Source of the DNA: Clostridia bacterium
GTDB taxonomy: Bacteria > Bacillota > Clostridia > UMGS1883
Assembly: GCA_017414645.1 (NCBI GenBank)
Contig: JAFQLL010000051.1
Location: forward strand, 1 to 55,871
Reading direction: 5' to 3'
Length of the DNA: 55,871 nucleotides
The notes below the pieces were generated by a model. That model did not search any database and had not been told where the DNA came from. It saw only the letters and a list, made by a program, of their open reading frames with translations. Below are positions 1 to 55,871 of this stretch, piece after piece. Both the position numbers and the translations under genes were made by a program. Each line of letters opens with the position of its first letter. Positions within the stretch are counted from its first letter, which is position 1.

Positions 1-50
1 AAATCAAATTTATTTTTTGCCTTATAGGAAATACGCAATTTCCTATAAGG
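1..50. repeat. Family A structured repeat, copy A1 (3' part only, cut by window edge), in tandem with A2
   Basis: 1-50 matches 171-220 except one base; contains hairpin ccttataggaaat-acgca-atttcctataagg. Confidence 0.9.
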
Positions 51-220
51 GAACAAAGTGTATCCGACACTCCTTGGCAACAACTCAAGCTAAGGCAGAC
101 AGAAGAGAAAACACTTTGTAATGCCATATGCGTTTTCCGAGCCATGCGAGGAAATTCTCGCACGGCAATAAAATCAAATTTATTTTTTACCTTATAGGAA
201 ATACGCAATTTCCTATAAGG
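51..220. repeat. Family A structured repeat (~170 bp), copy A2
   Basis: Aligns end to end with 25537-25706 and 55704-55871; several internal hairpins. Confidence 0.92.
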
Positions 221-221
221 T

Positions 222-248
222 AAAAAGCTCCCTTTCGGGGAGCTTTTT
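222..248. terminator. Intrinsic terminator-like hairpin
   Basis: aaaaagctccc-tttcg-gggagcttttt with A/T tails on both sides. Confidence 0.7.
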
Positions 249-262
249 TAGTTCATGCTGTA

Positions 263-305
263 TTGACTTTTTACCCTTTCAGGTGTATACTGATACTTAG
301 TTTCA
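263..305 (+). promoter_or_regulatory. sigma-A promoter with an overlapping Fur-family (Zur) box
   Basis: TTGACT(263-268)-17 bp-TATACT(286-291); 7-1-7 inverted repeat TGATACT-T-AGTTTCA at 291-305. Confidence 0.65.
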
Positions 306-5975: not shown

Positions 5976-8156
5976 TTACCATCTGCGTCCGCCGAAATTG
6001 CCACCGTTCCCTATATTGGTTACAGTACTGTTTTGTTCAATTGTATGAACGCTTTCACCGATTGTAACCGTATAGGTTTCGCCAATAGTCAACTTGTCAG
6101 ACGAAAATACAATGCTGTTACCTGTTTTTATTGTGGTGTAGCTGTAAATTACTTCGCCTGCAGCATTCTTTATTACAATGTTACTGCCTGATGCAATGTT
6201 TTCAGGCACAATAAGTCTGAATGAGGGCTGCAGAGAATCATTATCCGGTGTTTCTGCCATACCCGATGCACCAAGAGCAATAATTGTACCGCCATTAACC
6301 CTTATAACACCACCGGAGTCAAGTGCACCGTTACCACTATTTGTGGGGCCTTCAACAATTATATTGCCGCCTTCAATAATCATTCTGCCGTTAGCATCCA
6401 GCCCGTCGCCTGAGGCATTTACAAAAATATTACCACCTGTAATAACAAGATCGTGACCTGTAGCAGCCTCCTTGTCCTGACGGTTAACCGCATCTCTGCC
6501 GCCTGTACCGCCTGCGTTTATGCCATCGTCGCTGCCCTTTATGTTTATTTCGCCGCCGTTAATGGTAAGGTTTGCTTTGCTCTCAAGCCCCTCGGTTGCC
6601 TTGAGCACGTCAATCTTTCCGCCGTCGATAACAACATCGCCATGGGCAGAAATGCCCTTACCCTTTTCAGATGAAAGGCTCAATTCGCCACCTGTTATAT
6701 TAAGTGTGCCTGCACAATGTATTGCATGGTCGGCAGAATTTACAACTATGTTGCCGCCTGTGATTGTAACATCTGTTTCGCCCTTGATGCCCTTTGTTGC
6801 CGTAGCTTCATCCTCAGCTGTTTCGGGCTGTGTTACATTGCCATCAATGGGCATCATTTCATCAGGATTGCCAAAGCCCTCGGGAGGCATCATATTACCT
6901 TCGGGGCGTGTCATACCTTCGGGCGGCATCATATCGCCCTCGGGGCGTGTCATACCTTCGGGCGGCATCATATCGCCCTCGGGGCGTGTCATACCTTCGG
7001 GCGGCATCATATCGCCCTCGGAAGGCACCATGCCCTGCCACTCTCTGTTACCGCGGTTTTTCCAATTGCCTCGCTCTCCACCCGGGAATGGCTGTCCACC
7101 GGGGAAGCTATTAAAGGAATCGGCAACCTCGCCTGTGGTTGTCACGTTTATGTTGCCGCCTTCAATCACAACATCCTCTTCGGCCTGAATGCCGTCGCCC
7201 TTTGCAGTAACCGTTATGTCGCCACCAAGTATTTTTACGGTATTGTTTGCATGGATGCCATCCTTTTTATCGGCATTTAAAACAAGTGTACCCTCTTCAA
7301 TTTTAATATCGTCGTCACTTGCAAGAGCATGGTGTGCCTTACTTGTAACGTAAAGAGTACCTTCACCCTTTATTTCAATATCGTCGTTGGAGAATATTGC
7401 CGCCTTAGCATCAACTGCGTATTTTTCGCCGTCTGTAATGTAGTTTTCTGTGCCCTTTGAAATTGTAATAAAGGACTTGTTTGTGTTTTCAAAGAAAATA
7501 ACGGGGTTTGAGGGATTAGACAGCTTTACCCCTTCAAGACGAAGCTTAACCTTGTATTTTGTGTTAACATGAATCATTACGTTGTCATTTTCGCCTGTAA
7601 CGGTAAAGTCGCCGCCCTCGGTTATGTATACAACATTGTCGGAAATTTCAACACCCTGCCCCGTAGCTGTCATACCGGTTACATTTATTGTGCCGGTGTT
7701 TTCCTTCCATTTATCTTTATTTGCTTCGTATTCGGCGGTTGTAATTTCAACGGTGTTTTTGTCACCTTTCCATTCAACCGTAGCATCTACACTTTCGCTC
7801 ACGGCTCTTACAGGCACCATTGTACTGCCGTTTTCAATGAAGGGCGCAACATTCAGCTCAACCTTTTCGCCATTGAGCTCCATTTCCTTTTCACCGATAA
7901 CAAGCTTTACAACCTTATCGCCTTTTGTTGCGGTAACACTTTTTTCGTCGTTATTCCATTCAACGCTCATGCCGAGAGCTTCAAAAATGGCTCTCATGGG
8001 CACCATTGTGCTGCCGTTTTCAATGCGGGCAGGTGTGGTGCAGTTAAGCTTTTCCTCGTCAATTTTTACAGTAACCTCCTGGGCATGTGAATATAAGCCG
8101 AGGCTGCCAAGAAGCATTACAGCCAATACAATGCATATTATCTTTTTAAATTTCAT
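5976..8156 (-). CDS. Secreted protein: copper-amine-oxidase-like N-terminal (stalk) domain plus Cthe_2159-type beta-helix carbohydrate-binding domain
   Basis: Signal peptide; TMVPMRAIFEALG/TMVPVRAVSE stalk motifs; repeated I.GG.I.I...DDGI beta-helix pattern; GNGALDS. Confidence 0.8.
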   Translation of the reverse strand: MKFKKIICIVLAVMLLGSLGLYSHAQEVTVKIDEEKLNCTTPARIENGSTMVPMRAIFEALGMSVEWNNDEKSVTATKGDKVVKLVIGEKEMELNGEKVELNVAPFIENGSTMVPVRAVSESVDATVEWKGDKNTVEITTAEYEANKDKWKENTGTINVTGMTATGQGVEISDNVVYITEGGDFTVTGENDNVMIHVNTKYKVKLRLEGVKLSNPSNPVIFFENTNKSFITISKGTENYITDGEKYAVDAKAAIFSNDDIEIKGEGTLYVTSKAHHALASDDDIKIEEGTLVLNADKKDGIHANNTVKILGGDITVTAKGDGIQAEEDVVIEGGNINVTTTGEVADSFNSFPGGQPFPGGERGNWKNRGNREWQGMVPSEGDMMPPEGMTRPEGDMMPPEGMTRPEGDMMPPEGMTRPEGNMMPPEGFGNPDEMMPIDGNVTQPETAEDEATATKGIKGETDVTITGGNIVVNSADHAIHCAGTLNITGGELSLSSEKGKGISAHGDVVIDGGKIDVLKATEGLESKANLTINGGEINIKGSDDGINAGGTGGRDAVNRQDKEAATGHDLVITGGNIFVNASGDGLDANGRMIIEGGNIIVEGPTNSGNGALDSGGVIRVNGGTIIALGASGMAETPDNDSLQPSFRLIVPENIASGSNIVIKNAAGEVIYSYTTIKTGNSIVFSSDKLTIGETYTVTIGESVHTIEQNSTVTNIGNGGNFGGRRW
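6877..7020. repeat. 39-bp coding tandem repeat (PEGDMMPPEGMTR)
   Basis: Three identical units at 6901-6939, 6940-6978, 6979-7017 plus a degenerate partial unit. Confidence 0.95.
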
Positions 8157-9467: not shown

Positions 9468-9497
9468 AAAAAGTGCGACCGCATGTACGGTCGCACT
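9468..9497 (-). terminator. Intrinsic terminator between carD and ispD
   Basis: Minus strand agtgcgaccg-tacatg-cggtcgcact-tttt. Confidence 0.7.
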
Positions 9498-15489: not shown

Positions 15490-16998
15490 ATGTTTAACCG
15501 TTCCTGTGGCGTTTTGTGCCACATTTCATCAATTCCGGGCAGATACGGCATCGGCACCTTCGGCAAGGAGGCTGTGGAATTTGCCCAATTCCTCCGCAGC
15601 ATGGATATCCGGTCTTGGCAGGTGTTACCTCTTTGCCCCACAGACGACTACAACTCTCCCTACGCAGGCTGCAGCGCCTTTGCAGGTAATCCCTTCTTTA
15701 TTGACCCCGAAATTCTTTTCGAAGAAAAGCTTCTTACTAAAGAGGAACTGGAAAGCGCTGTTGCGCCCCAGCCCTACAGTGCCGATTTCAAGTTTTTGAA
15801 AGAAACACGTTTGCCCCTTTTCAAAAAAGCCTTCGACCGCTTTAAAGAAAAGGGCATGGACATACTTGAAAAGTTTTTGGTGGAGCATAGCGAGCTTGAC
15901 GACTACGCTCTGTTTACAGCTATTAAGGAGCATTACGAGCTTCTTCCCTGGTGGGAATGGCCCGAGGGCTTAAAAATGCGAGAGGAAGAAGCACTTAGTA
16001 AAGCAAAGGAAGAATTAAAGGACGAATACTTTTTTGCACTCTTTTTACAGTACGAATTCCACAAGCAGTTCACTTCTCTCAAGGAAAAAGTAAACGCTCT
16101 GGGTGTTTCTATAATCGGCGACATGCCCATTTATCTTGCACATGACTCTGCAGATGTATGGGCAAACAGAAGCATTTTCTCCATCGATGAAAAAACCTGT
16201 GCTCTCCGTGCTTGCGCAGGTGTGCCTCCGGACTATTTCTGTGCCGAAGGTCAGCTTTGGGGCAACCCCCTTTACGACTGGGACGAAATGAAAAAGGACG
16301 GCTACAAGTGGTGGATAAAGAGAGCAGGCTATGCGTTCTCTCTTTACGATGCAGTGCGTATTGACCACTTCAGAGCGTTTTCTGCTTATTGGTCTGTGCC
16401 TGCAGGCGAAAAGGCAACAAAGGGCGAATGGATAAAGGGCCCCGGAATGGACTTCTTTAATGCCCTCAGAAAAGAATACCCCACAAGCCCCATTATTGCC
16501 GAAGACTTAGGCGACATTGACGATGATGTTCGTCAGCTTGTAAAGGATACAAAGTTCCCCGGAATGGGAGTTATGCAGTTTGCATTCCTTTCCGACGGTG
16601 ACAACACACATATGCCCTATAACTACTCTGCTAACACAGTTGCTTACACAGGTACACACGACAACAACACCATCTTAGGCTGGCTCTGGGAAGCAGACGA
16701 TGCGTCCCGCAAGAGAATTTGCTCTTACTGCAACTTTGAAGGCGACTGGGGTATGGGCGGACCTAATGCACCCTGCATTAAAACCATTATCCGCACACTT
16801 TTTGAATCCTCCGCACTTTTGGCTATTGTACCCGTGCAGGATTTAGTGGGCTTTGGCGCCGACACAAGAATGAACACCCCCGGCTTGGCTGACGGCAACT
16901 GGGCTTTCAGAATTACAAAGGACAGCTTAAAAGAGGTTAACCGCGAATTCTTTAAGGATATTTCAAACAGATATCATCGCAACCAGAATCTTATATAA
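15490..16998 (+). CDS. malQ: 4-alpha-glucanotransferase (GH77)
   Basis: WQVLPL, GDMPIY, RIDHFR, IAEDLG, YTGTHDN, RMNTPG. Confidence 0.95.
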   Translation: MFNRSCGVLCHISSIPGRYGIGTFGKEAVEFAQFLRSMDIRSWQVLPLCPTDDYNSPYAGCSAFAGNPFFIDPEILFEEKLLTKEELESAVAPQPYSADFKFLKETRLPLFKKAFDRFKEKGMDILEKFLVEHSELDDYALFTAIKEHYELLPWWEWPEGLKMREEEALSKAKEELKDEYFFALFLQYEFHKQFTSLKEKVNALGVSIIGDMPIYLAHDSADVWANRSIFSIDEKTCALRACAGVPPDYFCAEGQLWGNPLYDWDEMKKDGYKWWIKRAGYAFSLYDAVRIDHFRAFSAYWSVPAGEKATKGEWIKGPGMDFFNALRKEYPTSPIIAEDLGDIDDDVRQLVKDTKFPGMGVMQFAFLSDGDNTHMPYNYSANTVAYTGTHDNNTILGWLWEADDASRKRICSYCNFEGDWGMGGPNAPCIKTIIRTLFESSALLAIVPVQDLVGFGADTRMNTPGLADGNWAFRITKDSLKEVNREFFKDISNRYHRNQNLI

Positions 16999-17116
16999 AA
17001 AAGTGTTTTAACACTTCAACCCCCTCGGTCCCCCAATCTTGGGGGACGAAAAGGTACACTTTTATTTTACAAGCAAATATGCGCACATTCTGCGCGCAAT
17101 TTCCTATGTAATAAAA
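16996..17116. repeat. Family B structured repeat (121 bp), copy B1
   Basis: Matches 36659-36779 with 4 substitutions by manual count; contains tccccca..tggggga and tgcgca..tgcgcg hairpins. Confidence 0.92.
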
Positions 17117-22721: not shown

Positions 22722-25091
22722 ATGAGAGGTTACACGGAAAGAACAAAAAAGCTTCGCGAAATGAGTGTTTCCACAAATCCTGCACTTTCAATTGAGCGAG
22801 CTGTAATTATGACAGAGGCTTACCAGAAGTACGAGGGCAGTGTTGACATTCCCGTGCTTCGCGCGTTGGCTTTTAAGGAATACATGGAAAGAAAAACCCT
22901 CGTTATTAACGAAGGCGAATTGATTGTAGGTGAAAAGGGCCATAACTTACAGTGTGCGCCCTCCTTCCCTGAGCTGTGTTGTCACACAATTGAAGATATG
23001 GAGGTTATGGACCAGAGAGAGCTCATAAGCTTTTCCGTAACCGAAGAGGATAAGCAGCTTCAGGCAGAAAAGGTTATCCCCTACTGGGAAAAGCGTTCTA
23101 TCCGCCACAAAATTATGCAGTCAACCTCACAGGAATGGAAAGATTGCTATGCTGCAGGTATGTTCACAGAATTTATGGAGCAGCGCGGTCCCGGTCATAC
23201 AGGTGCAGGTAACGTTATTTATAAAAAGGGCTTTTCCGACTTCAAGAAGGACATTGATGCACGTATTGCCCGTCTTGACTTTGTAAACGATGAACAGGCA
23301 TACGATAAAAAAGCAGAACTTGAAGCCATGAAAATTGCCTGTGACGGCATTATCACCTTTGGTCGCCGTTACAGCGAATACGCAAAGGAGCTTGCAGAAA
23401 AGGAAACAGACACACAGAGAAAGGCTGACCTTCTTTTAATCAGCGAAAACTGTAAGCAGGTACCCGAATTTGCACCTAAGACCTTCCACCAGGCACTTCA
23501 GATGTACTGGTTTGTGCACATTGGTGTAACAAGCGAGGTTAACCCCTGGGATGCGTTCACTCCCGGCAGACTTGACCAGCACCTTTACCCCTTCTATAAG
23601 AAGGAATTGAAGGAAGGCACAATTGACTACGATAAGGCACGTGAGCTTTTAGAGTGCTTCTGGATTAAGTTCAACAATCAGCCTGCTCCCCCTAAGGTTG
23701 GTATCACCCTTAAGGAAAGCGGCACATATACAGATTTCTGTAACATGAACACAGGCGGCATTACCGAAGACGGCAAGGACGGCGTTAACCCTGTAAGCTA
23801 CATTATCCTCGACACAATGGACGAAATGAAGCTTCTTCAGCCCTCCAGTAATGTACAGATTTCAAGAAAAACTCCCGACGATTTCCTGCTTCGTGCATGT
23901 GAAATTTCCCGCAAGGGCTGGGGTCAGCCTGCATTCTATAATACAGAAGCCATCATTCAGGAGCTTCTCAACGCAGGAAAAACAATTGAAGATGCACGCC
24001 ACGGTTGCTCCACAGGCTGTGTTGAAACAGGCTGCTTAGGCAAGGAAAACTACGCTCTTACAGGCTATTTCAACATTCCCAAGGTTTTGGAAATTACCCT
24101 TAACAACGGCTTTGACAACTACACAGGCAAGCAGATAGGTCTTAAAACAGGTAACCCCGAGGACTTCAAGAGCTTTGAAGAATTGTACGATGCATTCCTT
24201 AAGCAGATGCATCACTTCCTTGACATAAAGATTGCAGGCAACAACATTATCGAAAAGATTTATGCAAAATACATGCCCGTGCCCTTCCTTTCCATTATTA
24301 TGGAGGACTGTATTGAAAAGGCAGTTGACTACAACGCAGGCGGTGCACGCTACAACACCTACTACATTCAGGGTGTAGGTATAGGCACAATTACAGATGC
24401 TCTCTCTGCCATCAGCTACAATGTATTCGACAACAAGAATTTTACAATGGCAGAATTGGTTGATGCCCTTAAGGCCGACTTTGAAGGCTATGACCGCATT
24501 TATAACCTTGTATGTAACAAAACACCCAAATACGGCAACGACGATGACTACGCCGACGATATTATGAAGAGAGTTTTCAACAGCTACTGTGACTACATAA
24601 CAGGTCGACCCACTATTAAGGGTGGTCAGTATCGTATTGACATGCTGCCTACAACCTGCCACGTTTATTTTGGCGAGGTTTGCGGTGCTCTTCCCAACGG
24701 CAGAAAAGCACAGAAGCCCATGAGCGAGGGTATCTCCCCCGAAAAGGGCGCCGATACAAACGGTCCCACCGCTGTAATAAAGAGCTGCTCCAAGATGGAC
24801 CACCTCAAAACAGGCGGTACACTTCTGAACCAGAAGTTTACACCTGCTGTGCTTAAGGGCGAGGATGGCTTAAAGAACCTGGCTGCCTTGATTCGTGCTT
24901 ACTTTGCTCTTGACGGTCACCACATTCAGTTCAATGTTATTGACCGTGCAACACTTATTGAAGCACAGAAGCACCCCGAGGAATATAAGGACCTTATTGT
25001 TCGTGTTGCAGGCTACAGCGACCACTTCCGTAACCTTTCCAAGGCTTTACAGGACGAAATTATCAACAGAACGGAGCAATCCTTCTCCTGA
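22722..25091 (+). CDS. hypD: Trans-4-hydroxy-L-proline dehydratase (glycyl radical enzyme)
   Basis: 789 aa; FTEFMEQRGPGH, WDAFTPGRLDQ, ESGTYTDF, GCVE, MLPTTCH and VRVAGYS match C. difficile HypD motifs as recalled. Confidence 0.88.
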   Translation: MRGYTERTKKLREMSVSTNPALSIERAVIMTEAYQKYEGSVDIPVLRALAFKEYMERKTLVINEGELIVGEKGHNLQCAPSFPELCCHTIEDMEVMDQRELISFSVTEEDKQLQAEKVIPYWEKRSIRHKIMQSTSQEWKDCYAAGMFTEFMEQRGPGHTGAGNVIYKKGFSDFKKDIDARIARLDFVNDEQAYDKKAELEAMKIACDGIITFGRRYSEYAKELAEKETDTQRKADLLLISENCKQVPEFAPKTFHQALQMYWFVHIGVTSEVNPWDAFTPGRLDQHLYPFYKKELKEGTIDYDKARELLECFWIKFNNQPAPPKVGITLKESGTYTDFCNMNTGGITEDGKDGVNPVSYIILDTMDEMKLLQPSSNVQISRKTPDDFLLRACEISRKGWGQPAFYNTEAIIQELLNAGKTIEDARHGCSTGCVETGCLGKENYALTGYFNIPKVLEITLNNGFDNYTGKQIGLKTGNPEDFKSFEELYDAFLKQMHHFLDIKIAGNNIIEKIYAKYMPVPFLSIIMEDCIEKAVDYNAGGARYNTYYIQGVGIGTITDALSAISYNVFDNKNFTMAELVDALKADFEGYDRIYNLVCNKTPKYGNDDDYADDIMKRVFNSYCDYITGRPTIKGGQYRIDMLPTTCHVYFGEVCGALPNGRKAQKPMSEGISPEKGADTNGPTAVIKSCSKMDHLKTGGTLLNQKFTPAVLKGEDGLKNLAALIRAYFALDGHHIQFNVIDRATLIEAQKHPEEYKDLIVRVAGYSDHFRNLSKALQDEIINRTEQSFS

Positions 25092-25124
25092 TTTGTTCAA
25101 AATCACAAAATTTCATAAATGGTG

Positions 25125-25153
25125 TTGACAAATAAGTTTTTTCAGTATACTAT
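25125..25153 (+). promoter_or_regulatory. sigma-A promoter
   Basis: TTGACA-17 bp-TACTAT. Confidence 0.65.
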
Positions 25154-25214
25154 GTGCCTGTAAGGCAAAGTCTTACTTATATTTAATACTCTCAATTATG
25201 AGGAGGTTTTAACT

Positions 25215-25478
25215 ATGAGAAAATTTACAGTACACGATCTTGATCTTCAGGGCTTCATTCACGAGCTTTCCAACTGCACAGGCAACGTATGGATGACAAC
25301 AGAAGATGGCGACAAAATCAACCTTCAGTCCGCATTCTGCCGTCTTATCGGTCTCAAGAGCATTCTTGAAGGCGGTAAGCTCAGCCAGGCAACAATTGAA
25401 TGCGACAACGTTGAAGACGAATCCCGTCTTTTCAGATTCAACCTCTACGGCAGAAGCTCTTCCGAAGACGCTGAGTAA
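25215..25478 (+). CDS. Small conserved protein, HPr-like fold suspected
   Basis: GAGGAGG RBS, own promoter and terminator; F...L..C.G.V.....GD.INL.S pattern. Confidence 0.7.
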   Translation: MRKFTVHDLDLQGFIHELSNCTGNVWMTTEDGDKINLQSAFCRLIGLKSILEGGKLSQATIECDNVEDESRLFRFNLYGRSSSEDAE

Positions 25479-25497
25479 TAGCTTAATATTAAAAATG

Positions 25498-25529
25498 AAA
25501 ACCGCACCAGTGAATGGTGCGGTTTTTTT
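25498..25529 (+). terminator. Intrinsic terminator
   Basis: aaaaccgcacca-gtgaa-tggtgcggttttttt. Confidence 0.8.
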
Positions 25530-25536
25530 GTGCAAC

Positions 25537-25706
25537 GAACAAAGTGTCTCCGACACTCCTTAGCAATAGTTCGAGCTAAGGCAGACAGAGGAGAAAACAC
25601 TTTGTAATGCCATATGCGTTTTCCGAGCCTCGCGAGGAAATTCTCGCATGGCAATAAAATCAAATTTATTTTTCACCTTATAGGAAATACTCAATTTCCT
25701 ATAAGG
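25537..25706. repeat. Family A structured repeat, copy A3
   Basis: Colinear with 51-220, about 12 substitutions by manual count. Confidence 0.92.
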
Positions 25707-25710
25707 TGAA

Positions 25711-25736
25711 AGGAACGCAACCTTTGTTGCGTTCCT
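25711..25736. terminator. Terminator-like hairpin
   Basis: aggaacgcaac-cttt-gttgcgttcct. Confidence 0.6.
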
Positions 25737-25823
25737 TCATTTACTCGCCAAAAGCGATTTTCACATTCGTAAGCATATTGTCAATCCGCAGGATTGCTTG
25801 CGCTCACTTGAATAGCTTTTAAA

Positions 25824-27143
25824 TTATTTCAAAAGTCCCAGAGCTGCGTTCATTGCATTGTGAATAATTACCGCACATTCTGCTCTTGTTGCAGGAAGTG
25901 TGGGTTCAAACTTATTGTTAACTGCATCTCTTAATGGAGCAACACCTGTTGAATACAATGCATTTACAGCCTCAACGTCCCAGGAAGGAACAGCTGCAGC
26001 ATCACCAAAGGTGATTGCAGTGCCGTCAGCATTAGTCTTCGCCTTGAATTCGGGGTTGATAGATTTAATGTAACGGTAAACAATAAGGCAAAGGTCTCCT
26101 CTTGTTATGTTTGAATTGGGGTCAAAAATTGTTGTGCTTCTACCTGTAATAAATCCAAACTTATATGCAGCAGAAACATAGGTATAGTGCCATTCTGTTG
26201 CTGCTACATCCCAAAAGCTGCTTACATAGGTTGCCTTGTCCTTTTCGCTGTACCTGCCCGAAGCAAGAGTTATCATCTTTGAAAATTCAGCTCTTGTAAC
26301 GGGGTTGTTGGGCTTAAAGGTTTTGTCGGGGTAGCCATTTATAATTCCTGAATTAACAAGTGCATAAATAGCCTTTTCTGCCCAGGGTGCATCCTTTATA
26401 TCGGTAAATACAATTTTGGGCTCTGTGCTTGCTTCCTCGGAAGGCTGTGTAGCTTCTTCGCCCTCGTCGCCATAATCGGGGCCACCAATGCCGGGTTCCT
26501 TGCCGGGGTTTGTGGCAGGCTCTGTTTCGGGTTCCTTCTCGGGTTCTGTAGGAGCATCTGTCTCGGGCTCTGTGGGCTGAGTAGCAGGCTCGGTAGGAGC
26601 ATCTGTCTCAGGCTCTGTGGGCTTTGTAACAGGCTCTGTTTCGGGTTCTGTGGGAGCTTCTGTTGTAATTTCCTCAGTTTCTTCCTCTGTTGTGGGTTCT
26701 TCTGTTTCGTCTTCAACTTCGGCAAAAAGAATGAGCTTTATTGTTTCAACCAGGGGCTGAAATTCGGGAGCAATAATGCCGTCCATGCCGTCAAGAGCCG
26801 CACCGGGGAACGCCCCTACAAGAGCATCTCTCAGCTTCATGTGCTTTCTTTTAGACATTGAGTCTAAGATTGCTTCGATAAAGTAATCTTCGAAATTATC
26901 TTCTGTTACTTCAACATCAAGGCTAAGAAGATAAGATTGTACATCGCCAAGGAAATTGATAATCTGGCTTTCAGTTGCACCCTGTGCAAGGACTGCATCT
27001 ACAAATTCGGGGTACATAGCTGCACATTCCTCATATGCAACCCCAATGTCCATGCCTATGCCTGCAAAAGCAACAGGTGCACTTGTAAGCATAAACGCTA
27101 ATGTTAATAAAACTGCGGTTAATCTTTTAAAAGTCTTTTTCAT
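25824..27143 (-). CDS. Secreted SLH-domain protein with Pro/Thr/Glu-rich linker
   Basis: Signal peptide; TEP repeats; GIINGYPDKTFKPNNPVTRAE, ITRGD and ATRAE SLH motifs. Confidence 0.88.
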   Translation of the reverse strand: MKKTFKRLTAVLLTLAFMLTSAPVAFAGIGMDIGVAYEECAAMYPEFVDAVLAQGATESQIINFLGDVQSYLLSLDVEVTEDNFEDYFIEAILDSMSKRKHMKLRDALVGAFPGAALDGMDGIIAPEFQPLVETIKLILFAEVEDETEEPTTEEETEEITTEAPTEPETEPVTKPTEPETDAPTEPATQPTEPETDAPTEPEKEPETEPATNPGKEPGIGGPDYGDEGEEATQPSEEASTEPKIVFTDIKDAPWAEKAIYALVNSGIINGYPDKTFKPNNPVTRAEFSKMITLASGRYSEKDKATYVSSFWDVAATEWHYTYVSAAYKFGFITGRSTTIFDPNSNITRGDLCLIVYRYIKSINPEFKAKTNADGTAITFGDAAAVPSWDVEAVNALYSTGVAPLRDAVNNKFEPTLPATRAECAVIIHNAMNAALGLLK

Positions 27144-27268: not shown

Positions 27269-30200
27269 TCAGTCGAGTTCAAGAACTTCGGGCCAAGCAC
27301 GTGCAAGAAGTGTACATGCTTCTGCTCTTGTTGTGAAGCCGAGAGGCTTGTAGGAACCATCCTGGTAACCTGTGATGAGGCCGTTAGTTACAGCTGCATC
27401 CATTTCACCATCGAACCACCATGAGATATCTTCAGCGTCTGTGAAGATGTCCTTAGCGCCTTCTTCTGCTTCCTTCCAAACTGCGCTCTTAGCTCTTGCG
27501 ATAATTGCAACTGCCTGTTCACGAGTGATGAAGTCGTTAGGACCGAAGTTGCCGTCGCCGTAACCACGAGTCATACCGTAACCTTCGGGAAGAGACATTG
27601 TTGCGATTATATCCTGAGCCCAGTGACCTACTGTATCGTCGTAAAGTACACCGTCTTCAGCGATTTCAAGACCAAGAATTCTGTAAACAATTGCTGTGAA
27701 TTCAGCTCTTGTGATGTTCTGGTCGGGCTTGAACAAGCCATCGGGGTAACCCTTAATGTAGCCGTTAATTGTCATAGCGTCGATTGTAAGGTGAGCCCAG
27801 TGAGCTTCTGTCTTACCTTCCCAGCCTACAGCGATATCGGGCCATTCACATTCATGTTCCTTAACAACTGTATCGCCTTCAGTTACTGTGAAGATGTAGT
27901 CGCCTGTAAGCACTACGTTACCCTTTTCGTTAGTAACCTTAATTGTACCCTTAACTTCGCCTTCCTTAACACCTGTTACAGTTACAACGCCGTCAACGAT
28001 TTCAACCTTAACTTCGCCGTCGCCTGTGCCTGTAAATTCAACGTCTGTACCACCAGCGGGAACCTTTACAACATCCTTAGTTTCGTCAACCTTAACTGTG
28101 ATGTTAACTGCAGGATCGCTGCCGCCACCACCTGTGGGTACCTTAACTTTGATTACCTTAGAGTCAACTTCTACACCATTTACAAGAAGTGTAGCTGTGA
28201 TTGTCTTTGTGCCCTTTGCCAATCTTGTGATTGTAGCAATGCTTGCATCGTTAGCTGCTGTAGCAACGTTTGTAATTTCAAGAACTGTACCGTCTTCTGT
28301 TGTCCAAACGATTTCTACAGTTGCACCTTCAGGCTGAATGTTCTGAGGTGTTGCTGTGATTTCAATTGTCTTACCAACCTTCATGCTTCTTGTTGTCTTA
28401 CCAACAGAAAGTGTACCGGAAGGAGCAACAGCTGTTTCGGGAAGAATTTCGAATGTATCTTCAGCTTCTGTACCTGTCTGACCAACTGCTACTGTGTATA
28501 CGTTACCAACCTGAGCATTGTCAAGTGCAATTGTAACGCCTGCTTCGTATTCTGCCTTTGTATGTGTTACTGCATATACATTGTCTGTGCCAAGTGTAAC
28601 TGTAACTACTACAAAGTCAAGGTTTGTTGTACCCTTAATTGTGATTTCAGCGTTTTCATTATCGCTGAGCTTGAAGTCTTCAATATCTTCAAGGTTGATG
28701 TAGGGAGATTCAACAACTGTTACATCAGCATCGTCAAGAACGCTGTCATCAGCGGGGTCCTTAACTTCTACTGTGAACTGGTCGCCACCTTCAACGCCGT
28801 CGGGAAGAACGATTACGATACCGTCTTCGAAATCTTCCTTGCTAACTGCATCGGGATCAAGCTCGTTGCCGTCCTTATCCTTGATTGTTACCTGAACTTC
28901 GTTGCCGTTTTCGTCCTTAACTGTAACCTTTACTTCGTCAAGGCTTGTTTCACCACTTACTTCGATAGTGGGATCAGCTGTTGTGGGCTGCTTGTCAACA
29001 TTAACTGTTGTTTCGCCTTCTGCGATAATTGTAAATTCGTCAGAGTCGGAAGCCTTTTCTGTACCAACAACTACTGTATAAACATCGCCTTCCTGAGCAT
29101 TGTCGGGAGCGTTAAGTGTGATACCTGCTTCAAATTCTGCCTTGGAGTATACTACTGCGTAAATTGTTTCGCCATTCTTAACGATAGCTACTGTTACGTA
29201 GTCGAGGTTTGTTGTAGTACCCTTGATTGTGATTGTACCGTCAGCTGTTGTATCAAGTACATCTTCAAGAACTACTTCGTATGTTTCGTCTGCGCCTTCG
29301 ATTGCGAATTCGTCAGAGTCGGAAGCCTTTTCTGTACCAACTACTACTGTGTAAACTTCGCCTTCCTGAGCATTGTCGGGAGCGTTAAGTGTGATACCTG
29401 CTTCAAATTCTGCCTTTTCGTATACTACTGCGTAGATTGTTTCGCCATTCTTAATGATAGCTACTGTTACATAGTCAAGGTTTGTTGTACCCTTGATTTC
29501 AATTGTACCATCAACTGTTGTGTCAAGTACGTCGTCAAGAATTACATAGGGATTTTCAACGTCTTCGCCAACTGTTACATCAGCATCGTCAAGAACGCTG
29601 TCATCAGCGGGATCCTTAACTTCTACTGTGAACTGATCGCCTGCAACAACTCCATCGGGAAGAATGATTACGATACCGTCTTCAAAGTCTTCCTTGCTAA
29701 CTGCATCGGGATCAAGCTCGTTGCCGTCCTTATCCTTGATTGTAACTTCTACTTCGTTGCCTTCTTCATCCTTAACTGTAACCTTTACTTCGTCAAGGGG
29801 TGTTTCACCACTTACGTCAACTGTAGGATCGTCAACTGTGGGCTGCTTGTCAACATTAACTGTTGTTTCAGCAGATGTTGCTGTAACTGTAAATGTTGTT
29901 ACATATCTGTAAACGTCTTCAGGATCACCATCCTGAACGCCGTCCTGATCGTAGTCTGTATAACCACGGTAAACTGTTACTGTAGCTTCACCTTCAGTAC
30001 CTTCAGTAACTTCGATCATAATCTGACCAATGTCATCACCTGCATAAACCTTAATGCCGTCAGCATCGTAGTTTGCATCGAAGGAAGCAATGCCGTATTC
30101 GCTCACGGAAGAGAATACAGGATAAAGGTTGTGAGCAAAGCCAAGGCCAAGCTCTGCAACTTCATTACCGTTGATTTCAGCACCTTCAAGAACAGGACCA

Positions 30201-35101: not shown

Positions 35102-36658
35102 ATGAACAGAATTTTTGTAAATGAGCCCGAACGTGATTTTTCCATTCCCGCAGTAAAGGAAAACATGGAAAAGGCAATTGCTGCAGTTGAGCTCGAACTC
35201 GGTCGCGACTACCCCTTAGTTATCGGTGGCGAAAAGATTTTCACAGAAAAGAAAACAACATCCATTAACCCCTGTAAGAAGGACCAGGTTATAGGCTACG
35301 CATCCAATGCATCGAAGGAATTGGCCGACAAAGCTATCCGTGTTGCATACGACACCTACGAAGAATGGAGACTTGTTCCCACTCGTGTAAAGTATGACTA
35401 TATTATGCGCCTTATCGGCATTTTACAAAAGCGCAGATACGAAATCGCAGCCTGGATGATTCTTGAAACAGGCAAGAACTTTGGCGAAGCTGACGGCGAA
35501 ATCTGCGAAGCTATCGACTTCTTCAACGCTTACGCGCAGGGCGCTGTATATCTTGAAGAGCATCCCGTTCCCCTGGTTGAATCAACTGTTGAAAACAACC
35601 GCTCGGAATACCGTCCTATTGGCGTTGGCTTGGTAATTCCTCCCTGGAACTTCCCCTTCTCCATCATGGCAGGTATGGTAATCAGTGCAGTTGTTACAGG
35701 TAACACTGTTTGCATTAAGCCTGCAAGCGATGCGCCCATCACAACATGCAAGTTTGTTGAAATGTGCGAAGAAGCAGGTATTCCTGCAGGCGTTGTTAAC
35801 CTTATCCCCGGCTCAGGTAGCGAAATTGGTGACTTTGTAGTTGACCACCCCCTTACACGCTTTATTAACTTCACAGGCAGTAAGGCAGTAGGTCTCCGCA
35901 TTGCAGAAAGAGCAGCAAAGGTTAACGAAGGTCAGAAGTGGATTAAGAGAATTATTGCAGAAATGGGTGGCAAGAACGCAATTGTTGTTGACTCCTCCGC
36001 AGACCTCCGCTGGGCTGCAAAGCAGGCAGCAGCTGCAGCATTTACCTTCCAGGGTCAGAAGTGCTCCGCATGTAGCCGTGCGATTGTTCTTTCCGATGTT
36101 TATGACGAATTCCTTACATATTTCAAGGAAGAAGCTGAAAGCTACCAGCAGGGCGAAGGCAAGGCAAACAAGGACATTTGTGCCGTTATCAACAAGGCAT
36201 CCTTCGATAAGATTGCAGGCATGATTGAACAGGGTAAAACAGAAGGCAGACTTATTACAGGCGGCACATACGACGATTCCGTAGGCTTCTATGTAAAGCC
36301 CACAATTATTGCCGACGTTGACCCCAAAACAAGCGTTATCGCAAACCAGGAAATTTTCGGACCTGTTGTTGCAGTTATGAAGGTTGACACCTTTGAAGAT
36401 GCTATCGACCTTGCAAATGCTACAGAATATGGTCTTACAGGCTCTGTATTCTCCGCAAACCGCGAAAATATCGAATACGCAAAGGACAACTTCTTTGTAG
36501 GCAACCTTTACATTAACCGTAAGTGCACAGGCGCAGTTGTTTACAACCACCCCTTCGGCGGTTACAACATGAGCGGCACAACAGCTAAGACAGGTACAGT
36601 TGACTACCTTTACAACTTTGTACAGCTTAAGTCTATATCCGAAAACGTTGTATATTAA
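35102..36658 (+). CDS. rocA: 1-pyrroline-5-carboxylate dehydrogenase (RocA/PruA type)
   Basis: F.NEP..DFS N-terminus, PPWNFP, FTGS, AEMGGKN, GQKCSACSR, EIFGPV, GNLYINRKCTGA. Confidence 0.88.
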   Translation: MNRIFVNEPERDFSIPAVKENMEKAIAAVELELGRDYPLVIGGEKIFTEKKTTSINPCKKDQVIGYASNASKELADKAIRVAYDTYEEWRLVPTRVKYDYIMRLIGILQKRRYEIAAWMILETGKNFGEADGEICEAIDFFNAYAQGAVYLEEHPVPLVESTVENNRSEYRPIGVGLVIPPWNFPFSIMAGMVISAVVTGNTVCIKPASDAPITTCKFVEMCEEAGIPAGVVNLIPGSGSEIGDFVVDHPLTRFINFTGSKAVGLRIAERAAKVNEGQKWIKRIIAEMGGKNAIVVDSSADLRWAAKQAAAAAFTFQGQKCSACSRAIVLSDVYDEFLTYFKEEAESYQQGEGKANKDICAVINKASFDKIAGMIEQGKTEGRLITGGTYDDSVGFYVKPTIIADVDPKTSVIANQEIFGPVVAVMKVDTFEDAIDLANATEYGLTGSVFSANRENIEYAKDNFFVGNLYINRKCTGAVVYNHPFGGYNMSGTTAKTGTVDYLYNFVQLKSISENVVY

Positions 36659-36779
36659 TAAAAAAGTGTTTTAACACTTCAACCCCCTCGTTCCCCCATT
36701 CTTGGGGGATGAAAAGGTGCACTTTTATTTTACAAGCAAATATGCGCACATTCTGCGCGCAATTTCCTATGTAATAAAA
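36659..36779. repeat. Family B structured repeat, copy B2
   Basis: Near-identical to 16996-17116. Confidence 0.92.
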
Positions 36780-45581: not shown

Positions 45582-45657
45582 TGGCTCCTCCAGTTGGACT
45601 TGAACCAACGACATCATGATTAACAGTCATGCGCTCTACCGACTGAGCTATAGAGGA
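45582..45657 (-). tRNA. tRNA-Asn (GTT)
   Basis: 76-nt cloverleaf TCCTCTATAGCTCAGTCGGTAGAGC..CTGTTAA..GGTTCAAGTCC..GGAGCCA. Confidence 0.97.
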
Positions 45658-55703: not shown

Positions 55704-55871
55704 GAACAAAGTGTCTCCGACACTCTCTGGCGATAGTTGCAATTAAGGTAAACAGAGGAGAAAACACTTTGTAATGCCATATGCGTTTTCCGAGCCTCGC
55801 GAGGAAATTCTCGCATGGCAATAATATAAAATTTATTTTTGCCTTATAGGAAATACGCAATTTCCTATAAG
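55704..55871. repeat. Family A structured repeat, copy A4 (runs to window end)
   Basis: Colinear with A2 and A3; starts 5 bp after a stop codon. Confidence 0.92.

Follow-up and report, generated by a model that had tools for sequence, protein, structure and literature searches.

We analysed a 55,871-nucleotide (nt) stretch of Clostridia bacterium DNA (contig JAFQLL010000051.1, hereafter the window), which carries four copies of a dispersed repeat, Family A. Family A is a small non-autonomous structured repeat with an unusual, well-defined docking rule. It is non-coding, about 170 nt long, and runs from GAACAAAG to CCTATAAGG plus 1–2 nt. Its defining feature, absent from a preliminary description of the window made from the sequence alone, is precise docking beside terminator hairpins. 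We give an even chance to the reading that Family A is a folded single-strand repeat that docks at terminators with its internal T-run as a guide and is moved in trans by a presumed HUH (Y1) enzyme.

Family A copies in the window and in the genome

The genome that holds the window (G000, in which the window is contig C26) is a 2.11-Mb metagenome-assembled genome (MAG) of 112 contigs, 89% complete. The four copies in the window, all on the + strand and including one tandem, lie where the preliminary description had placed them. They are given here with their docking targets, where G007 and G008 are genomes of the same genus and ORF stands for open reading frame.

1–50, + strand: 3′ part of a Family A copy (linker and terminal palindrome), cut by the contig start and abutting the next copy head to tail
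51–221, + strand: complete Family A copy, GAACAAAG...CCTATAAGGT
222–249, no strand: host docking target consisting of an A-run, a unique hairpin (gctccc tttc gggagc) and a T-run, that is, a terminator
9468–9496: unoccupied target, AAAAA followed by the hairpin GTGCGACCG catgta CGGTCGCAC; the G008 ortholog (C57:27378–27553) is filled by Family A
25498–25530: terminator of the upstream + strand gene, kept in G007 and G008
25537–25708, + strand: complete Family A copy; the orthologous site is empty in G007 and G008
25709–25735: host A-run and hairpin, GGAACGCAA...TTGCGTTCC; G007 and G008, where the site is empty, also have this hairpin with its A-run and T-run
55704–55871, + strand: Family A copy truncated by the contig end, beginning 5 nt past the stop of a 56-codon + strand ORF

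Downstream of the target at 222–249 lie a promoter and a Fur-family gene starting at ~329, and a convergent gene ends at 25824, beyond the hairpin at 25709–25735. The copies at 1–50 and 51–221 are joined with zero spacer, the sequence passing directly from ...cctataagg to gaacaaag..., and a second head-to-tail tandem was found at C108 of G000; both tandems are consistent with a second insertion at the same joint. BLASTN returned 71 matches of at least 70 nt in G000, with 26 internal and 45 within 30 nt of a contig end, so that 45 of the 224 contig ends, on 39 of the 112 contigs, carry Family A. Because 45 of the 71 matches sit at contig ends, Family A breaks the assembly, in agreement with the earlier proposal that both window ends fall inside a high-copy repeat. 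The summed contig depth on the element was 60–100 times that of its flanks in three metagenome runs.

Family A docks beside terminator hairpins

To define the boundaries of the element, we aligned 21 internal full copies together with their flanks. In these copies the 5′ edge is sharp at GAACAAAG and the 5′ flank is unconstrained, while the 3′ end is formed by the palindrome CCTTATAGGAAAT-N5-ATTTCCTATAAGG, with a T-run before it and an A-run after it. A pair of filled and empty sites, described below, places the 3′ boundary directly ahead of the A-run, which is host DNA, correcting an earlier boundary. The alignment and the pairs of filled and empty sites also confirmed that Family A has no terminal inverted repeats, target duplication, or conserved ORF, as had been described. 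A candidate reading of the first seven bases of the element as a copied target heptamer was dropped, because a G007–G000 pair places the odd AAACAA flank in the host.

Directly 3′ of nearly every copy lies a hairpin of unique sequence, mostly with a T-run behind it, and these docking hairpins differ in sequence from copy to copy. For 37 of 40 copies, the 45 nt 3′ of the element reach a folding energy of −10 kcal/mol or below; of 2000 windows taken at random from the genome 16% do so, and of the elements' own 5′ flanks 4 of 50. An A-run of 5–8 A directly follows the element in 33 of 40 copies. The targets have only this A-run and a hairpin of any sequence in common, and Family A is inserted beside them in a single orientation, its 3′ end meeting the A-run. 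The same layout is repeated in copies from eight related genomes, seven of the genus (G001, G002, G003, and G006–G009) and one of another genus (G023).

Analysis of the neighbouring genes, called by a simple longest-ORF rule, revealed that 36 of 43 copies have a convergent gene, on the opposite strand, past their 3′ end, mostly at a distance of 12–50 nt; since this gene is convergent and close, the hairpin is its terminator. On the 5′ side, a co-directional gene is present in 25 of 46 copies, its stop codon often flush with the element, and a divergent gene in the other 21. Read on the opposite strand, the order is gene, stop codon, hairpin, T-run, and element, and the terminator is left intact. 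At C72:45715 and C7, Family A abuts, with a second repeat family on its 3′ side, the A-run and hairpin that open that family; the target there has no T-run, suggesting that an A-run plus a hairpin is sufficient for docking. Short forms without the palindrome also adjoin an A-run and a terminator.

Orthologous sites are filled or empty in related species

Eight G000 loci were compared with sister species of the genus, in which the flanks are 70–96% identical. Clean, collinear empty sites were found at five of the eight loci.

Window 25537–25708: empty in G007 and G008, with the GGAACGCAA hairpin, A-run and T-run all retained
G000 C42:2040–2215: empty in G008 and G007
G000 C9:5903–6078: empty in G007
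G000 C72:16049–16224: empty in G007, with the same hairpin
G000 C75:24276–24451: empty in G007 and G008
G000 C24:32594–32769: uninformative, a single flank being found
G000 C13:4357–4532: uninformative, ~975 nt including the element being absent from the relative
G000 C72:45715–45890: uninformative, the right flank being non-collinear

Reciprocal sites, filled in a relative and empty in G000, were found for G007:C18 (against G000 C51), G008:C57 (against window 9468–9496), and G003:C81 (against G000 C11). In the pair of G007:C18 and G000 C51, the empty site reads TAA followed directly by AAACAATAAAAGGCTG..., and the filled site reads TAA, the element from GAAC... to CCTATAATG, and then AAACAAAAAAAGGCTG..., indicating that the A-run, its odd C included, is host DNA and that nothing is duplicated. 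As the empty sites keep the A-run, hairpin, and T-run, the terminator predates the insertion. The copies cluster by species, and pairs with 98–99% identity occur at different loci in G000, G001, and G006. Insertion is supported because filled sites go both ways between the species and the sub-families are species-specific, and on these grounds the earlier assignment of Family A as a non-autonomous mobile element stands.

Three further loci show other arrangements. The G003:C81 copy (L075), compared with G000 C11:20208–20261, opens with TAACAAAG, the TAA of which is the stop of the upstream gene, and the final codons of that gene differ from those of its G000 orthologue. At L088 (G001:C15:26900–27428), the ortholog of the window locus at 25537, a divergent member without the palindrome is followed by a different terminator. 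In G006 (locus L071), Family A fills an A-run-plus-hairpin site that in G000, at the orthologous C101:10616–10819, holds another insert, of ~200 nt, with the target stretch cataaaaaaatcctc on each side of it.

Fold and covariation

The fold was assessed in an alignment (A1) of 41 distinct full copies from seven genomes, in which cells count sequences rather than independent events and few sub-families are represented. The supported fold combines the long-range 5′ helix, a CCATRTGCG/CGCAYGG helix that encloses TTTCC/GGAAA, and the palindrome at the 3′ end, with 94.8% of cells paired. In this fold 14 pairs are changed on both sides (88 cells), against 26 ± 6 in shuffled alignments, and none of 500 shuffles reaches this value; slid registers give 37–50% paired. 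Three covarying domains are formed: a 5′ domain closed by CAAAGTGTCTCC/GGAG..ACACTTTG, a core hairpin, and the terminal palindrome. The core hairpin is irregular and conserved (CCATRTGCG-TTTTC...GAAAT-TCT-CGCAYGG), and the terminal palindrome has 13-bp arms and a 5-nt spacer of variable sequence. Related element types carry independent compensatory variants in the 5′ helix (GTGT/ACAC, GTGA/TCAC, and GCGA/TCGC, plus changes of the outer pairs). The core hairpin varies in them too, at its tip (GCC/GGC, GTGC/GCAC, and GAT/ATC).

Among the hairpins originally proposed, the long-range pairing of CAAAGTGT with ACACTTTG and the terminal palindrome covary and are retained. The local hairpins AGTGT-N5-ACACT and GCGAG-gaaatt-CTCGC are present in the sequence and 83% paired, but they contain no covarying pair and perform no better than shuffles. 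The CCTTRGC/GCTAAGG stem is weak (78% of cells paired). A plus-strand fold, previously deduced from G.U versus A-U variation in this stem, is not borne out: G.U and A.C cells number 72 and 61 overall and 52 and 47 in the stem, and the near-equal overall counts favour neither strand. The two checks proposed at the outset, covariation and presence or absence among relatives, returned covarying pairs and sites that are filled or empty between species.

A composite element–host stem

In most of 63 distinct copies, pairing reaches ~10 bp past the palindrome core. The extension consists of 3–4 covarying pairs within the element (gcc/ggc, acc/ggt, aca/tgt, or cac/gtg), followed by the internal T-run paired with the flanking A-run. 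Since the internal T-run pairs with the host A-run, the joint lies inside a continuous stem of ~20 bp stacked on the host hairpin.

Strand bias

With GC skew as a proxy for replication direction, the + strand of the element lies on the C-rich side in 47 of 53 copies on contigs of at least 8 kb, and in 41 of 47 where the absolute skew is at least 0.03. Among 401 unoccupied A-run-plus-hairpin motifs, 51% have their A-run strand on the C-rich side (binomial p = 1.4e-7 against 41/47). The G-rich strand carries 76% of long ORFs and is therefore probably the leading strand. The sign of the bias is that expected if the strand that reads hairpin, T-run, and element were to enter an exposed lagging-strand template.

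Search for an enzyme or an RNA family

At Rfam gathering thresholds, the window gave only a tRNA, and eight related loci gave nothing apart from one c-di-GMP-I riboswitch elsewhere in one of them. At E-values up to 10, window positions 1–300 matched only generic hairpin-plus-terminator small RNAs below threshold, so that the Rfam check called for earlier produced no family even at this level. An early lead, the core as a group II intron domain V, is unsupported by Rfam, with no Intron_gpII match at E up to 10.

Searches for a linked enzyme returned no IS110 DEDD transposase (PF01548) in G000, no TnpB (PF07282) in any of 10 genomes of the genus, and no multi-copy transposase when all G000 ORFs were compared with one another. 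The 460 ORFs that lie within 2.5 kb of 67 related loci were clustered, and no neighbour recurred other than ordinary host families, at 3–4 loci each. The genes neighbouring the copies are functionally unrelated, the copies being scattered between housekeeping genes. G000 has Y1_Tnp genes, as do 8 of 10 genomes of the genus. G000 encodes two 250-aa RAYT-like Y1 (HUH) proteins (NF047646, 68–75 bits against a cut-off of 80), and its only two RVT_1 matches are both retron-type reverse transcriptases of 312 and 335 aa (65–80 bits on the group II model, with a cut-off of 300).

G000 C72 ~10.3–11.1 kb (L051:1129–1881): RAYT-like Y1 gene
G000 C10:82–834: RAYT-like Y1 gene
G000 C80 (L048:1354–2361): retron-type reverse transcriptase gene
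G000 C88 (L049:1228–2166): retron-type reverse transcriptase gene

The earlier suggestion of mobilisation in trans by an HUH/RAYT or reverse transcriptase type enzyme is left without an established class: the Y1 genes carry other palindromes, the reverse transcriptases are retron-type, TnpB was not found in the 10 genomes, nor an IS110 transposase in G000. A third Y1 gene, near a G006 copy, was rejected as a candidate, since two genes lie between, the stretch is partly masked, and no ends are held in common. One of the Y1 palindromes contains a motif, GGGGACGGGT, with 16 occurrences in the genome, which may mark a separate REP-like family. One of the retron-type reverse transcriptase genes lies directly behind a gene for a 354-aa AAA-type ATPase, and both are possible defence systems.

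No promoter-like (sigma-70-like) site was found inside the two copies scanned. One RNA run gave, for window 24600–26600, a single 152-nt contig that overlaps the element by 42 nt, from which no inference on expression is drawn. An independent structured RNA gene, the alternative proposed earlier, is weakly indicated, given the lack of a promoter-like site in these two copies and a co-directional upstream gene in only 25 of 46.

Proposed mechanism and alternative explanations

In the preferred reading, Family A would fold as single-stranded DNA and move in that form at the replication fork. Behind the hairpin and T-run, the lagging-strand template would take up the strand opposite to the window + strand, and the internal T-run would be an inbuilt guide or splint, bringing the 3′ end of the element into line with the A-run beside the hairpin. 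Cutting and joining would be carried out by a trans-acting enzyme of the HUH (Y1) type, as in IS200/IS605 and REP–RAYT. Guide–target pairing and a lagging-strand bias are features of the IS200/IS605 family. According to one report, terminator-like hairpins are over-represented directly upstream of insertion sequences, most of all for IS200/IS605 (PMC13548323), and a single-strand, hairpin-guided reading fits this enrichment.

Several points weigh against this reading. Each Y1 gene in G000 is bracketed by its own palindrome of ~70 nt, unrelated to Family A, and no enzyme is linked to Family A. Across 10 genomes the presence of Y1 genes and that of the element are uncorrelated, with G004 having Y1 without the element and G007 the element without a Y1 match. 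Unlike the left and right ends of IS200/IS605, the end hairpins of Family A are dissimilar, and by inspection no sequence is common to the palindrome and the 5′ domain. Gene direction confounds the strand bias, selection against insertion into 3′ untranslated regions (UTRs) would give the same sign, and of the few copies near lagging-strand genes three lie each way. In a few copies, matching odd bases occur on both sides of the joint (TTTATTT/AAATAAA at G000 C97 and TTTGTTG/CAACAAA in G008), with no such match in others (G000 C37 and G007:C18). The flanking A-run may therefore not always be host DNA, and a target chosen to match the guide, co-evolution of the two sides once inserted, and flank DNA captured by the element are all possible readings. 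The genomes compared are incomplete MAGs of different species, so that insertion rather than precise loss is suggested without being formally polarised, and a joint skipping the element was not seen in contigs of three DNA runs on window 24600–26600.

We regard it as quite unlikely that a tyrosine recombinase acts on a folded hairpin site of the attC-like or Xer-like kind, by way of a circle joined in the same manner as the tandem copies. The spacerless head-to-tail tandems, the precise insertion without duplication, and a joint within a stem partly made of flanking DNA, as in attC sites, would all suit such a process, and some copies (for instance G000 C24:32594–32769 and C53) have the usual palindrome spacer in reverse-complemented form. 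Yet the targets are alike only in an A-run and any hairpin, and no core common to element and target is seen by inspection; the palindromes differ between related types, and short forms lacking one still dock. Nor does a recombinase gene recur beside the 67 related loci, and a strand bias is unexpected for a double-strand process. RNA-mediated mobility akin to that of group IIC introns, or target-primed reverse transcription, in which the element RNA would pair with the terminator T-run or A-run through an EBS/IBS-like contact and be copied into DNA behind the hairpin, appears very improbable. The position and orientation of Family A on the opposite strand do match those of group IIC introns, placed downstream of an inverted repeat and then Ts in one study (PMC1702495), and guide-like pairing with the flank, the strand bias, and two reverse transcriptase genes in G000 point the same way. 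Against this, Rfam gave no group II match at E up to 10, 170 nt is far under ribozyme size, and the ends are unlike those of group II introns by inspection. Moreover, the reverse transcriptases are both of the retron type, the copies have precise 5′ ends instead of variable truncations, and the two copies scanned have no promoter-like site.

It is most unlikely that Family A is chiefly a functional structured RNA, a 3′-UTR element or a small RNA borrowing the host terminator, which is kept by selection and for which mobility is secondary. Its helices covary and its core is conserved across genera; 25 of 46 copies start a few bases past a co-directional stop, and copies end at a terminator, which is the shape of a 3′ UTR or small RNA; and the sub-threshold Rfam matches are hairpin-plus-terminator small RNAs. 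However, 21 of 46 copies have no co-directional upstream gene, a promoter-like site is lacking in the two copies scanned, wobble cells (72 versus 61) reveal no strand preference, and the neighbouring genes are functionally unrelated. Presence or absence between species and near-identical paralogues fit selfish spread.

Distribution and related modular repeats

Family A occurs in seven of nine other genomes of the genus, with 2–31 matches each; other genera, and one other family of the order, have matches that are partial or limited to the core. An exact-pattern scan for the core in 185,579 species genomes returned 67 loci, about 60 of them in MAGs of uncultured Clostridia or Oscillospiraceae, as judged by record title; where the titles name a host, it is roe deer or goat. 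The few loci in the unrelated Mesorhizobium, Anaerolineaceae, and Armatimonadota seem to be matches by chance. In phage and plasmid collections BLASTN with the element gave no match. As the same core is found with different 5′ domains and end palindromes, these repeats form a modular superfamily.

At L040 and L041 (G006), L042 (G007:C18, ~47.0–47.3 kb), L043 (G033:C29), and L044 (G007:C27), the same core is joined to another 5′ domain. The elements at these five loci occupy entire intergenic regions and adjoin start codons; the opposite strand reads GGAGATTATT-ATG, and they seem to provide the ribosome-binding site of unrelated genes (ornithine carbamoyltransferase-like and glucokinase-like), sequestered in a long stem. 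Long Family A variants with an extra structured insert of ~100 nt were found at L046 (G002:C25), L047 (G009:C333), and L076 (G002:C14), the insert interrupting the 3′ strand of the 5′ helix between ACAC and TTTG. Near the long-variant copy in G009 lies the c-di-GMP-I riboswitch (L047:1875–1958, 63.8 bits).

The second high-copy repeat family is present at window 16995–17116 and 36658–36779, at G000 C72:45891–46113 and C7:135–255, and elsewhere, with 48 BLASTN rows in G000. It has a short form of ~122 nt and a longer form, has the motif GCGCAATTTCCTAT in common with the 3′ arm of Family A, lies mostly directly ahead of unique terminator hairpins, has no Rfam match, and at two loci has Family A directly 5′ of it. 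Other features of the window are the tRNA gene at 45585–45657 (− strand, 72 bits) and in-frame tandem or domain repeats within long ORFs at 6877–7021, 26493–26720, and 28709–29863.

Comparison with known systems and implications

Family A resembles IS200/IS605, their non-autonomous derivatives (PATEs), and REP/BIME–RAYT in having no terminal inverted repeats, no duplication, and hairpins at or near the ends. With IS200/IS605 and REP–RAYT, it shares a single orientation, a short target on one side, and an internal stretch by the end hairpin that pairs with the target. The orientation of IS608 and ISDra2 is reportedly biased with the replication strand. Further likenesses to IS200/IS605 are terminator hairpins directly upstream (PMC13548323) and Y1 homologues in the genome. 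Unlike in IS200/IS605, the guide of Family A is on the far side of the hairpin, where it extends the stem, and the target is an A/T run by any hairpin rather than a fixed tetra- or pentanucleotide. In contrast to both IS200/IS605 and REP–RAYT, no autonomous copy with Family A ends was found, the resident Y1 genes carrying other palindromes; Family A is also much longer and more modular than REP. It differs from IS110 in that its targets have no common sequence beyond the A-run and no DEDD transposase was found in G000. Integron attC sites are folded hairpins whose stem base is partly neighbouring DNA, at which recombination is precise and without duplication, whereas Family A is dispersed rather than arranged in cassette arrays, shows no attC-type boxes by inspection, and has no linked integrase that we could find.

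As one study describes, group IIC introns insert just past a terminator stem-loop and T-run, with the same direction as the gene that ends there (PMC1702495). Family A likewise follows the hairpin and T-run of a terminator and runs the same way as the gene, and recognition would likewise involve a hairpin plus few base pairs, but at 170 nt it has no ribozyme domains, intron-type ends (by inspection), or maturase-type reverse transcriptase. SPRITE of Streptococcus pneumoniae is enriched near gene 3′ ends (PMC3049150). Compared by description only, Family A is small, non-coding, high-copy, structured, and intergenic, like SPRITE, BOX, and RUP; unlike SPRITE, which is itself terminator-like, it is found next to a terminator that the host already had, and the hairpin at its own end is preceded by a T-run and followed by an A-run. 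With classical MITEs (miniature transposable elements that have inverted repeats) it shares small size, lack of coding capacity, high copy number, and insertion polymorphism, yet unlike them it has no terminal inverted repeats (GAACAAAG... versus ...CCTATAAGG) and no target duplication; the accessible part of a MITE review mentions no terminator-targeting MITE (PMC10969869). As at least one defining feature of each compared family is missing, Family A was filed under none of them, and no description of such an element was found in the open-access literature.

We put forward as a tentative and rather unlikely proposal that Family A, the second family, and the related repeats make up a possibly undescribed transposition system, with pairing of a T-run with the terminator A-run as guide, a composite hairpin, and a core read by a possibly host-encoded enzyme, under a rule distinct from those of IS200/IS605, IS110, and group IIC. 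If this were true, such structure-plus-guide targeting could perhaps be retargeted by altering the guide. The second family is of similar copy number, and both together may explain much of the fragmentation of ruminant-gut Clostridia assemblies and could be used to mark strains. Should the docking rule hold, Family A would be a clean natural case of a harmless landing site, outside genes and with the terminator intact, which is found through DNA shape (a hairpin) plus few base pairs. The finding bears on how REP-like and MITE-like repeats spread without a transposase of their own, and the pairs, the stem, and the bias give testable predictions.

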